In this document: piece after piece, positions 6,701 to 10,419 of the stretch
Numbering within the stretch: the first letter of the stretch is position 1
Layout of the letters: every line of letters starts with the position of its first letter
Assembly: GCF_003334315.1 (NCBI RefSeq)
Contig: NZ_QOWR01000026.1
Reading direction: 5' to 3' (one strand)
DNA: 57,948 bases
Source of the DNA: Escherichia coli
GTDB lineage: Bacteria > Pseudomonadota > Gammaproteobacteria > Enterobacterales > Enterobacteriaceae
The notes under the pieces: generated by a model
The model's input: only the letters and a program-made list of their open reading frames with translations
What the model was told of the DNA's origin: nothing
The model's database searches: none
Translations under genes and position numbers: made by a program

Positions 6701-7873
6701 ATGCGGAAACTCTGGAACGCGCTACGCCGACCCAGTGCTCGTTGGTCGGTACTGGCGCTGGTCGCAATTGGGATTGTGATTGGCATTGCGCTGATTGTAT
6801 TGCCACACGTTGGGATCAAAGTCACCAGCACAACCGAATTTTGTGTCAGTTGCCACAGTATGCAACCGGTGTATGAAGAATATAAACAGTCGGTGCATTT
6901 CCAGAACGCCTCCGGCGTGCGAGCTGAATGCCATGACTGTCATATCCCGCCGGATATTCCAGGCATGGTGAAGCGCAAACTGGAAGCGAGCAATGATATC
7001 TACCAGACCTTTATTGCTCACTCCATTGATACACCTGAAAAATTCGAAGCCAAACGCGCGGAACTTGCCGAGCGTGAATGGGCGCGAATGAAAGAAAACA
7101 ACTCGGCAACCTGCCGCTCCTGCCATAACTACGATGCGATGGATCATGCGAAGCAGCATCCTGAAGCGGCACGTCAGATGAAGGTGGCAGCGAAAGATAA
7201 TCAATCCTGCATCGACTGTCATAAAGGTATTGCCCACCAGTTACCGGATATGAGTAGCGGCTTCCGTAAGCAGTTCGATGAGCTGCGCGCCAGTGCTAAT
7301 GACAGTGGTGACACGCTGTACTCTATTGATATTAAGCCAATTTATGCGGCGAAAGGCGATAAAGAAGCCTCTGGTTCTCTGCTGCCTGCTTCGGAAGTGA
7401 AAGTCCTTAAACGTGACGGCGACTGGCTGCAAATTGAAATTACCGGCTGGACGGAAAGCGCCGGACGTCAGCGTGTACTCACCCAATTCCCAGGTAAACG
7501 CATCTTTGTTGCCTCGATTCGTGGTGATGTGCAGCAGCAGGTGAAAACGCTGGAGAAAACCACCGTTGCCGACACCAATACCGAGTGGAGCAAGTTGCAG
7601 GCCACCGCATGGATGAAGAAAGGCGACATGGTGAACGATATCAAACCGATCTGGGCCTATGCGGATTCGTTGTACAACGGCACCTGTAACCAGTGCCACG
7701 GCGCACCGGAAATCGCCCACTTTGACGCTAACGGTTGGATCGGCACGCTCAACGGCATGATTGGCTTTACCAGTCTCGATAAACGTGAAGAACGCACTTT
7801 GTTGAAATATCTGCAAATGAATGCGTCTGACACCGCAGGTAAGGCTCACGGCGATAAGAAGGAAGAAAAATAA
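6701..7873 (+). CDS. torC: TorC pentahaem c-type cytochrome
   Basis: ATG at 6701 gives a 390-aa protein MRKLWNALRRPS... with multiple CxxCH haem-binding motifs. Confidence 0.95.
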   Translation: MRKLWNALRRPSARWSVLALVAIGIVIGIALIVLPHVGIKVTSTTEFCVSCHSMQPVYEEYKQSVHFQNASGVRAECHDCHIPPDIPGMVKRKLEASNDIYQTFIAHSIDTPEKFEAKRAELAEREWARMKENNSATCRSCHNYDAMDHAKQHPEAARQMKVAAKDNQSCIDCHKGIAHQLPDMSSGFRKQFDELRASANDSGDTLYSIDIKPIYAAKGDKEASGSLLPASEVKVLKRDGDWLQIEITGWTESAGRQRVLTQFPGKRIFVASIRGDVQQQVKTLEKTTVADTNTEWSKLQATAWMKKGDMVNDIKPIWAYADSLYNGTCNQCHGAPEIAHFDANGWIGTLNGMIGFTSLDKREERTLLKYLQMNASDTAGKAHGDKKEEK

Positions 7874-10419
7874 TGAACAATAACGATCTCTTTCAGGCAT
7901 CACGTCGGCGTTTTCTGGCACAACTCGGCGGCTTAACCGTCGCCGGGATGCTGGGGCCGTCATTGTTAACGCCGCGCCGTGCAACTGCGGCGCAAGCGGC
8001 GACTGAGGCTGTCATCTCGAAAGAGGGCATTCTTACCGGGTCGCACTGGGGGGCTATCCGCGCGACGGTGAAGGATGGTCGCTTTGTGGCGGTAAAACCG
8101 TTCGAACTGGATAAATATCCGTCGAAAATGATTGCCGGATTGCCGGATCACGTACACAACGCGGCACGTATTCGTTATCCGATGGTACGCGTGGACTGGC
8201 TGCGTAAGCGCCATCTGAGCGACACCTCCCAGCGCGGTGATAACCGTTTTGTGCGCGTGAGCTGGGATGAAGCCCTCGACATGTTCTATGAAGAACTGGA
8301 ACGCGTGCAGAAAACTCACGGGCCGAGTGCCTTGCTGACCGCCAGTGGTTGGCAATCGACGGGGATGTTCCATAACGCTTCGGGGATGCTGGCGAAAGCT
8401 ATTGCCTTGCATGGTAATAGCGTTGGTACGGGCGGAGATTACTCTACCGGTGCTGCGCAGGTGATCCTGCCGCGCGTGGTTGGCTCAATGGAAGTGTATG
8501 AACAGCAAACCTCCTGGCCGCTGGTATTGCAGAACAGCAAAACCATTGTGCTGTGGGGCTCCGATTTGCTGAAAAACCAGCAAGCGAACTGGTGGTGCCC
8601 GGATCACGATGTTTATGAATATTACGCGCAGTTGAAAGCGAAAGTCGCCGCCGGTGAAATTGAGGTCATTAGCATCGATCCGGTTGTTACATCCACCCAT
8701 GAGTATCTGGGACGCGAGCATGTGAAGCACATTGCGGTTAACCCGCAAACTGACGTGCCGCTGCAACTGGCGCTGGCGTATACGCTGTACAGTGAAAACC
8801 TGTACGACAAAAACTTCCTCGCTAACTACTGTGTAGGTTTTGAGCAGTTCCTGCCGTACCTGCTGGGTGAGAAAGACGGTCAGCCGAAAGATGCCGCATG
8901 GGCTGAAAAACTGACCGGCATTGATGCCGAAACCATTCGTGGGCTGGCGCGGCAGATGGCGGCGAACAGAACGCAAATTATTGCTGGCTGGTGCGTGCAG
9001 CGTATGCAGCACGGTGAACAGTGGGCGTGGATGATTGTGGTTCTGGCGGCGATGCTGGGGCAAATTGGCCTGCCAGGTGGTGGCTTTGGTTTTGGCTGGC
9101 ACTATAACGGCGCAGGCACGCCGGGGCGTAAAGGCGTTATTCTGAGTGGTTTCTCCGGCTCTACGTCGATTCCGCCTGTTCACGACAACAGTGACTACAA
9201 AGGCTACAGCAGCACAATTCCGATTGCCCGTTTTATCGATGCGATCCTCGAACCGGGGAAAGTGATCAACTGGAACGGTAAATCGGTAAAACTGCCGCAG
9301 CTGAAAATGTGTATTTTTGCCGGAACTAACCCATTCCATCGCCATCAGCAGATCAACCGCATTATTGAAGGCTGGCGCAAGCTGGAAACGGTTATCGCCA
9401 TAGATAACCAGTGGACCTCAACTTGCCGCTTTGCCGATATCGTGCTGCCTGCGACCACGCAGTTTGAGCGTAACGATCTCGACCAGTACGGCAACCACTC
9501 CAACCGTGGCATTATCGCCATGAAACAGGTCGTGCCGCCGCAGTTCGAGGCGCGCAACGACTTTGATATTTTCCGCGAGCTGTGCCGTCGCTTTAATCGC
9601 GAAGAAGCCTTTACCGAAGGGCTGGACGAAATGGGCTGGCTGAAACACATCTGGCAGGAAGGTGTACAGCAAGGCAAAGGACGCGGCGTTCATCTGCCAG
9701 CGTTTGATGACTTCTGGAATAACAAAGAGTACGTCGAGTTTGACCATCCGCAGATGTTTGTTCGCCACCAGGCATTCCGCGAAGATCCGGATCTCGAACC
9801 GCTGGGCACGCCGAGTGGCCTGATTGAGATCTATTCGAAAACCATCGCCGATATGAACTACGACGATTGTCAGGGGCATCCGATGTGGTTTGAGAAAATC
9901 GAACGCTCCCACGGTGGGCCTGGCTCGCAGACGTATCCGTTGCATCTGCAATCTGTGCATCCGGATTTCCGACTTCACTCGCAGTTATGTGAGTCGGAAA
10001 CGCTGCGTCAGCAATATACGGTAGCGGGTAAAGAGCCAGTGTTCATTAACCCGCAGGATGCCAGCGCGCGCGGTATTCGTAACGGTGATGTGGTACGCGT
10101 ATTTAACGCTCGCGGTCAGGTGTTGGCAGGAGCAGTAGTTTCTGACCGCTATGCACCCGGCGTGGCGCGAATTCACGAAGGGGCATGGTACGATCCAGAT
10201 AAAGGCGGCGAGCCTGGTGCGCTGTGCAAATACGGTAACCCCAACGTGCTGACCATCGACATCGGTACTTCGCAGCTGGCGCAGGCGACCAGTGCGCACA
10301 CTACGCTGGTGGAAATTGAGAAGTACAACGGAACAGTGGAGCAGGTGACGGCGTTTAACGGCCCCGTGGAGATGGTGGCGCAGTGCGAATATGTTCCCGC
10401 GTCGCAGGTGAAATCATGA
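7873..10419 (+). CDS. torA: TorA trimethylamine-N-oxide reductase (molybdoenzyme, Tat substrate)
   Basis: 848-aa ORF with twin-arginine signal ([11 protein letters not shown]); start overlaps torC stop (TAATG). Confidence 0.95.

Follow-up and report, generated by a model that had tools for sequence, protein, structure and literature searches.

Gene overlaps of the -4, -1 and -8 classes, where the number is the spacing in nucleotides between the stop codon of one gene and the next gene's start codon, are the three classes enriched in prokaryotes, and in Escherichia coli coupling of translation between two neighbors works efficiently at spacings between -4 and +3 nt (PMC12548453). Four out of five native E. 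coli pairs of the -4 class were found to be coupled through a distance-dependent termination-reinitiation (Huber et al.; PMC6728339), and overlaps are enriched among genes encoding partners in complexes (PMC10666635). Here we analyze such junctions in a stretch of 57,948 nt, hereafter called the window, that corresponds to a part of the E. coli chromosome carrying the tor, cbp, rut, put, efe, csg, ymdAB-clsC and opg genes. Based on overlapping stop and start codons at torC/torA, torA/torD, cbpA/cbpM, rutA/rutB and opgG/opgH, and on a ymdB stop codon abutting clsC, an earlier note suggested translational coupling within operons. With good confidence, we conclude that the overlaps are ordinary ones of the -1, -4 and -8 types, with a putative coupling that would depend on the junction considered, and that clsC most likely starts inside ymdB.

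The start of clsC

On the plus strand of the window, the TGA stop codon of ymdB (44821-44823) is followed by a single T (44824) and by a TTG (44825-44827), which is the clsC start annotated in K-12 and gives a spacing of +1 nt. The coordinates of the earlier note were thus right, but its wording was slightly loose since the two codons are separated by one nucleotide. The RefSeq annotation of K-12 starts clsC at this TTG (1106355) and predicts a protein of 473 amino acids. In all other E. coli genomes examined, the NCBI Prokaryotic Genome Annotation Pipeline (PGAP) starts clsC at an ATG, located at 44765 in the window, which leads to a protein of 493 amino acids and a 59-nt overlap with ymdB. 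This codon belongs to an ATGATG motif formed by codons 159-161 of ymdB (44765-44770), whose two ATG would produce out-of-frame overlaps of 59 and 56 nt, and the open reading frame of the 493-amino-acid form spans positions 44765-46246 of the plus strand. No ClsC-specific model able to fix the N-terminus was found in NCBIfam. The discrepancy between K-12 and PGAP is already latent in public databases; what we add is the case that related genomes make for the long form, together with its connection to the effect of ymdB described below.

We scanned one genome per species and retrieved 80 ClsC loci, among which 23 have a ymdB homologue upstream; the 20 genomes with ymdB just upstream of clsC were examined. 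In 15 of them, the codon equivalent to the TTG is a non-start one. It is replaced by TTA, a synonymous leucine codon, in the closest sister species, E. albertii, where the Shine-Dalgarno (SD) sequence is also weakened, and by CCG, AAC, AGT, AAA, AAT, GCA, GCC, CGA or GAT in 14 more genomes belonging to at least 11 genera, whereas Citrobacter sedlakii has a TTG and the Citrobacter youngae group an ATG. Relative to this codon, no ATG, GTG or TTG occurs between -54 and +30 in Intestinirhabdus, Lelliottia, Leclercia and Enterobacter, or between -42 and +30 in Superficieibacter. An in-frame ATG located at -54 to -66, inside ymdB, is found in E. coli and in 19 of the 20 related genomes, including the five just named.

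This embedded ATG is kept in all 19 overlapping genomes aligned thanks to compensating codon combinations. Indeed, Tyr159 of YmdB is encoded by TAT in each of the 13 genomes that present a tyrosine, and where a phenylalanine is found instead, either Asp160 or codon 161 is GAT. The third-position entropy of ymdB is lowest at codons 153-162, the 8-codon segments starting at codons 153 and 155 being tied for the lowest of 170, and the synonymous variation of the ymdB tail is modestly lower in the overlapped segment (0.45 vs. 0.55), mostly owing to the surroundings of the embedded ATG. In the ClsC frame, an M-x-x-K-x-P N-terminus is conserved, whereas the extension is otherwise freely variable.

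Phytobacter massiliensis (locus L019) is a particular case, as its ymdB and clsC are about 115 nt apart (some 70-180 nt ahead of the match to ClsC). The spacer contains a decayed duplicate of the C-terminal segment of ymdB, in which the relic CYDNKNARRIDL is followed by stop codons in the ymdB frame, while the clsC frame still reads MTIKMPEE..., fitting the M-x-x-K-x-P start of the other genera. The overlap thus appears to have been resolved in this species through a duplication of the shared segment. Similarly, ClsC homologues without ymdB upstream start at least 13 codons ahead of the position equivalent to the TTG. Distant homologues of this kind in beta- and gamma-proteobacteria (loci L042-L082) exhibit a hydrophobic N-terminal stretch followed by L-x-G-C, located some 60-75 nt ahead of the match to ClsC in locus L055, that resembles a lipoprotein signal peptide; the enterobacterial proteins have none.

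Taken from these comparisons, the most likely start of clsC is the ATG at 44765 or that at 44768, inside ymdB, and not the TTG that follows the ymdB stop codon. The start at 44825 put forward in the earlier note agrees with the annotation of K-12, but the genomes of relatives favor the upstream ATG. That the latter is the main start, or one used together with the TTG, in E. coli itself is on balance probable, and ymdB/clsC is probably not a junction where a stop codon stands next to a start codon.

A serious, if doubtful, contender is that the K-12 annotation is right. ClsC would then be synthesized from the TTG at 44825 and coupled to ymdB, the ribosome terminating on ymdB opening a predicted hairpin that hides the SD sequence AAGGAG. 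This 6-bp hairpin, which pairs CUCCUU (44797-44802) with AAGGAG (44810-44815; whole hairpin 44797-44815, plus strand), is present in both the minimum free energy (MFE) structure and the centroid. Several observations count in favor of the TTG and weigh against the upstream start. The SD sequence preceding the TTG is strong and ideally spaced (-8.5 kcal/mol, 9 nt away), and neither it nor the TTG varies among the E. coli genomes examined. Among the Citrobacter, where the C. youngae group has an ATG at the same position, C. werkmanii must start there, since in-frame stop codons close the frame upstream, and its ATG forms an ATGA motif with the ymdB stop. Moreover, three substitutions occur in the overlap among E. 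coli genomes and all are synonymous in ymdB but alter the putative extension of ClsC, which would therefore be only weakly constrained. Such polymorphism does not discriminate between the two starts, as neither of them varies in the genomes examined.

Published initiation data also bear on this point. In INRI-seq, a cell-free profiling with retapamulin, the synthetic transcripts contain, for each K-12 open reading frame, its first 153 nt preceded by only 30 nt of upstream sequence (PMC9825163); the upstream gene is thus untranslated and a peak denotes autonomous initiation. The TTG of clsC yielded 0 counts per million (CPM) in five of five replicates, for a pool abundance of 316 CPM (PMC9825163), a negative result that the hairpin sequestering the SD sequence would account for. 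Negatives in this assay are nevertheless weak evidence, given that 30% of annotated starts are negative, as is rutA, the first gene of its operon. The examined part of the TRAINSPOTTER table contains no entry for clsC.

A start at the TTG is difficult to reconcile with the synonymous TTA and weakened SD sequence of E. albertii, with the non-start codons of 15 of the 20 genomes, five of which lack any alternative start in the intervals given above, and with an upstream ATG that is always maintained and around which the synonymous sites of ymdB are most frozen. It is likewise at odds with the upstream start and M-x-x-K-x-P motif retained by Phytobacter without any overlap with ymdB, with the earlier start of the homologues devoid of ymdB upstream, and with the long form annotated by the NCBI pipeline. 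A third in-frame candidate, the ATG at 44816, was rejected as the SD sequence abuts it with zero spacing.

The choice of the start bears on the design of ClsC expression constructs and on the reason why ymdB raises ClsC in cis. According to the title of a 2024 paper, the product of ymdB is reportedly not required for the specificity of ClsC. An increased yield of ClsC is on record for clsC clones that contain ymdB, through "an unknown mechanism" (PMC8027125). We tentatively propose, as a quite conceivable extension of the upstream start, that clsC begins at 44765 or 44768, that the 473-amino-acid ClsC of K-12 and UniProt lacks the first 20 residues and the native start region, and that ymdB acts on these clones in cis and not through the activity of YmdB. 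Plausible explanations in cis are that such clones include the native start, that ymdB is translated, or both.

Five short overlaps in the tor, cbp, rut and opg operons

The torCAD, cbpAM, rutA-G and opgGH genes are organized in operons, and TorD is the specific chaperone of TorA, to which TorC provides electrons. The operon status of cbpAM is further supported by a study that described a 2:2 complex of CbpA and CbpM (PMC4063869). Such partnerships would give some of the pairs a functional reason to be coupled. The motifs listed in the earlier note were all recovered in the sequence and in the annotation transferred to it, with spacings of -1 nt for torC/torA, cbpA/cbpM and rutA/rutB, -4 nt for torA/torD and -8 nt for opgG/opgH; all five fall within the range of stop/start spacings of coupled pairs (about -8 to +6 nt). 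Equivalog models of NCBIfam matched TorC, TorA, TorD, CbpA, CbpM, RutA, RutB, MdoH and YmdB near full length and above curated cut-offs, so that the gene ends are fixed without relying on the annotation, whereas no NCBIfam model passed its cut-off for OpgG or ClsC. Related loci were fetched for each junction, and none of the five overlaps is missing from any other genus sampled.

In the tor operon, encoded on the plus strand, the stop codon of torC (7871-7873) and the start codon of torA (7873-7875) share one nucleotide in a TAATG motif (7871-7875), as seen in both sequence and annotation; the TorC model is matched from position 1 to 390 of 390 and TorA scores above its cut-off. An SD-like element, AAGGAAG (7859-7865), lies within the last codons of torC and would form a duplex of -5.7 kcal/mol with the 16S rRNA tail, in a region predicted to be unstructured (fold z = +1.0). 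The start of torD (10416-10418) and the stop of torA (10417-10419) form an ATGA (10416-10419). Here, a hairpin is predicted around the SD sequence (AGGTGA, 10406-10411) and the AUG of torD (10359-10427, plus strand; MFE -25.9 kcal/mol); its centroid is identical to the MFE structure, which makes up 17.5% of the ensemble, yet its stability equals that of shuffled sequences (z = -0.01). The geometry of both tor junctions varies among -1, -4, -8 and -11: torC/torA is at -1 in Providencia and at -11 in Citrobacter and Salmonella (ATGAAAAATAA), torA/torD at -4 in Citrobacter and Providencia and at -8 in Salmonella. All eight tor junctions overlap despite differences in the C-terminus of TorC and in the exact geometry, the identity of TorD among these genera being about 62-64%.

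The cbpA and cbpM genes are located on the minus strand, with a TAATG motif (11470-11474) in which the cbpA stop and the cbpM start share base 11472. The family models cover CbpA (1-306 of 306) and CbpM (1-101 of 101) entirely, and the SD sequence of cbpM (GGGGGA, 11480-11485, minus strand) is embedded in cbpA. The -1 spacing is found in the three genera compared, i.e., in E. coli, Salmonella bongori and Cedecea, where both the TAATG and the SD sequence (GGGGGAAA) are kept.

Also on the minus strand, rutA and rutB share base 21480 in a TGATG motif (21478-21482), with a SD sequence for rutB, AGGAGGTG (21486-21493, minus strand), inside rutA. This element is the strongest of those preceding the annotated starts of the window (-11.6 kcal/mol) and is predicted to pair with codons 4-5 of rutB. 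The -1 spacing and the GAGGTG SD sequence are conserved in four of four genera (E. coli, Enterobacter, Klebsiella and Buttiauxella). An additional in-frame ATG (21481-21483, within ATGATGA) that would create an ATGA overlap was considered as the start of rutB and rejected. Indeed, it was not seen in the three other genera, where rutA has GCG or GCC just before its stop codon; being restricted to E. coli in our sample, it leaves the -1 reading as the right one. The rut operon of Klebsiella (locus L095) is more compact, with overlaps of -8 at rutB/rutC (2204-2211), -4 at rutC/rutD (2593-2596) and -4 at rutD/rutE (3393-3396), where E. coli has spacers of +7 to +11 nt, which points to a geometry that changes readily in the course of evolution.

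The longest of the five overlaps joins opgG and opgH on the plus strand: the ATG of opgH starts at 49333 and the TAA of opgG occupies 49338-49340, within the 8-nt junction ATGAATAA (49333-49340). No SD sequence precedes opgH (16S duplex of only -1.9 kcal/mol). An N-terminal peptide of OpgH was nonetheless detected at exactly the 49333 start by N-terminomics (PMC13245402, Table S1). The -8 spacing was found in four of four genera, with a junction identical to ATGAATAA in Lelliottia, Cedecea and C. youngae. Upstream, the annotated ATG of opgG (47805) has no recognizable SD sequence (duplex of +0.4 kcal/mol) and another in-frame ATG lies at 47787; the annotated start nonetheless shows weak initiation in INRI-seq.

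Bare motifs are common, with 141 TAATG, 216 TGATG and 519 ATGA on both strands of the window, so that a motif by itself means nothing and only its position at real gene ends counts. Five of the 19 co-directional pairs with ends at most 30 nt apart sit at -1, -4 or -8 (P = 0.002 vs. uniform spacing). In E. coli as a whole, 707 of 2,987 unidirectional pairs (24%) are spaced by -8 to +6 nt (PMC10666635), as compared to 8-9 of 36 pairs (22-25%) in the window, which is therefore typical and not unusual. The five overlaps are thus ordinary short overlaps of the commonest known classes; they represent a textbook operon architecture, present at the genome-average frequency and in every E. coli annotation, and as they have been visible in that of K-12 for decades, their finding is already known.

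Other close gene pairs are present in the window but were absent from the list of the earlier note, including co-directional overlaps of 26 nt (ymcF/ymcE) and 11 nt (ymcE/gnsA) at positions 302-858 and tight spacers at csgD/csgE (+4), efeO/efeB (+5) and yceJ/yceI (+3). In the same region, the annotation gives ymcF an ATT start codon. Two convergent pairs are also tight, the 3' ends of torT and torR overlapping over 28 nt (5879-5906) and yceK and msyB being separated by 0 nt (52276-52277).

Does coupling operate at these junctions?

The suggestion of the earlier note stands in part. The overlaps have spacings at which coupling works, lie in operons, are conserved and, in four of five cases, are accompanied by a SD sequence within the upstream gene (torA, torD, cbpM and rutB, -3.9 to -11.6 kcal/mol; opgH, at -1.9 kcal/mol, has none), but several of the downstream starts are autonomous in vitro. 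Indeed, INRI-seq called initiation at torA (297, 263, 296, 212, and 221 CPM for a pool abundance of 13 CPM), at cbpM (140, 107, 169, 103, and 96 CPM; pool 77 CPM) and at opgH (32, 30, 33, 26, and 24 CPM; pool 107 CPM), whereas torD (pool 101 CPM) and rutB (pool 34 CPM) gave 0 CPM in five of five replicates (PMC9825163). The in vivo Ribo-RET values provided in the same table are zero for all downstream genes considered here, which are unexpressed in the condition used (PMC9825163).

The absence of signal for torD, rutB and the TTG of clsC fits a dependence on upstream translation, without proving it. Predicted structures show a pattern that agrees with INRI-seq, as the SD sequence or the AUG is predicted to be paired for torD, rutB and the TTG of clsC, and not for torA.

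Most probably, a ribosome that finishes translating the upstream gene would unfold the start region of the downstream gene and supply subunits nearby, in which case the output of the latter would track that of its partner. Upstream translation would be needed by torD and rutB, where SD sequence and AUG are predicted to be paired and solo initiation is absent in vitro. The start regions of torA, cbpM and opgH would function alone, and coupling would just top up or buffer their expression. In our reading, selection keeps the start codon of every downstream gene in place where the gene before it ends. Geometry and public INRI-seq data together provide a testable ranking, in which torD and rutB are predicted to depend on coupling and torA, cbpM and opgH to be autonomous.

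Some findings weigh against coupling. Since torA, cbpM and opgH initiate in vitro without translation of the upstream gene, coupling is there at most an add-on. No junction folds more stably than shuffled sequences (z from -0.01 to +1.0), and the structures are suggestive. The proteins exhibit 62-90% identity within Enterobacterales, meaning that conservation of the overlaps reflects in part inheritance and not selection. We found no published experiment tying these gene pairs to translational coupling. Among native pairs, bioBF is uncoupled despite a -4 overlap (PMC6728339), and profiling under depletion of the ribosome recycling factor (RRF) left coupling unchanged, arguing that re-initiation is not a major route to coupling in E. 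coli (PMC7538156). With Huber et al. on one side and the RRF-depletion study on the other, the literature is split on the mechanism.

It could be argued from these points that the overlaps are neutral side products of genome compactness and that the downstream genes are translated independently from their own SD sequences, with no functional coupling. NTGA and TRATG motifs arise easily, the start codon supplying most of the stop codon, and the lability of the rut geometry between E. coli (+7 to +11) and Klebsiella (-8, -4, and -4) goes in the same direction, as do the autonomous starts of torA, cbpM and opgH, the bioBF pair and the RRF data. We consider such full independence unlikely. In four genera, the overlap persists at the tor junctions through changes of the flanking codons and of the exact geometry, the embedded SD sequence is conserved at cbpM and rutB, torD and rutB lack autonomous initiation even though the SD sequence of rutB is the strongest, and coupling was found in most of the native overlapping pairs tested so far. 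Readings of the junctions as frameshifts or fusions were set aside, as the partners match full-length family models.

Genomic context of the window

Bases 6600-11100 of the window have matches in 5,421 of 5,426 complete E. coli genomes, including at least 10 at 100%. Strain CP53 is collinear with the window at 99.96% identity, except for a length difference of 181 nt and for the first 203 bases. The PGAP (RefSeq) gene table of CP53 was carried over to the window, and the start codon, stop codon and open frame were checked for each coding sequence (CDS). The gene order starts with cspG', ymcF, ymcE, gnsA, yccM, torS, torT, torR, torCAD, cbpMA, yccE (frameshifted), agp, yccJ, wrbA and ymdF; it continues with rutGFEDCBA, rutR, putA, putP, efeUOB, phoH, ghrA, ycdXYZ, csgGFED and csgBAC, and ends with ymdA, ymdB, clsC, opgC, opgGH, yceK, msyB, mdtG, lpxL, trhO and yceIJ.

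Positions 1-203, which do not align to CP53, adjoin the 3' part of cspG. Their reverse complement resembles the left end (insA side) of the insertion sequence (IS) IS1, and an IS insertion appears to have truncated cspG in the strain of the window. The yccE gene (12653-13908) is frameshifted, with a CDS of 1,256 nt and eight in-frame internal stops, and PGAP flags the copy of CP53 as "frameshifted" too. At positions 35952-36053, beside a tRNA-Ser and the repeats of the small RNA RtT, the window falls short of CP53 by 181 nt and the two alignment blocks overlap, which suggests a difference in repeat copy number. Finally, efeU (29972-30802) is an intact open reading frame of 831 nt. In K-12, this gene is a frameshifted pseudogene, which would mean that the window does not derive from K-12, though its ymdB-clsC junction equals that of K-12.

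Comparison with known coupled genes

The junctions described here may be compared with three sets of known systems. The pairs hyfHI, astDB, ydbH/ynbE, as well as menDH (Huber et al., 2019, 2023) are the most similar, being also E. coli operon genes for interacting partners, with a NTGA or TRATG geometry and an embedded SD sequence. They differ in that premature stop codons and mRNA controls were applied to them, whereas the pairs of the window are known from their sequence and from published profiling, and in that three of the downstream starts reported here are autonomous in vitro.

In trpB-trpA, with its UGAUG, as well as in atpHA and rplJL, RNA unfolding is involved. Similarly, upstream translation would open the masks predicted for torD, rutB and the TTG of clsC; unlike in these systems, the structures are predicted ones and are no stabler than shuffled sequences.

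The closest parallel to ymdB/clsC is comEB-comEC of Bacillus subtilis, where the ComEB protein is reportedly dispensable but its translation is needed for an optimal synthesis of ComEC (bioRxiv 10.1101/2020.12.30.424838). Unlike in that system, the start codon of clsC may itself lie inside ymdB, and the mechanism by which ymdB would act in cis is putative. Both cases have in common an upstream product that is apparently unneeded and an upstream gene that, in cis, raises the amount of a membrane-associated enzyme encoded downstream.

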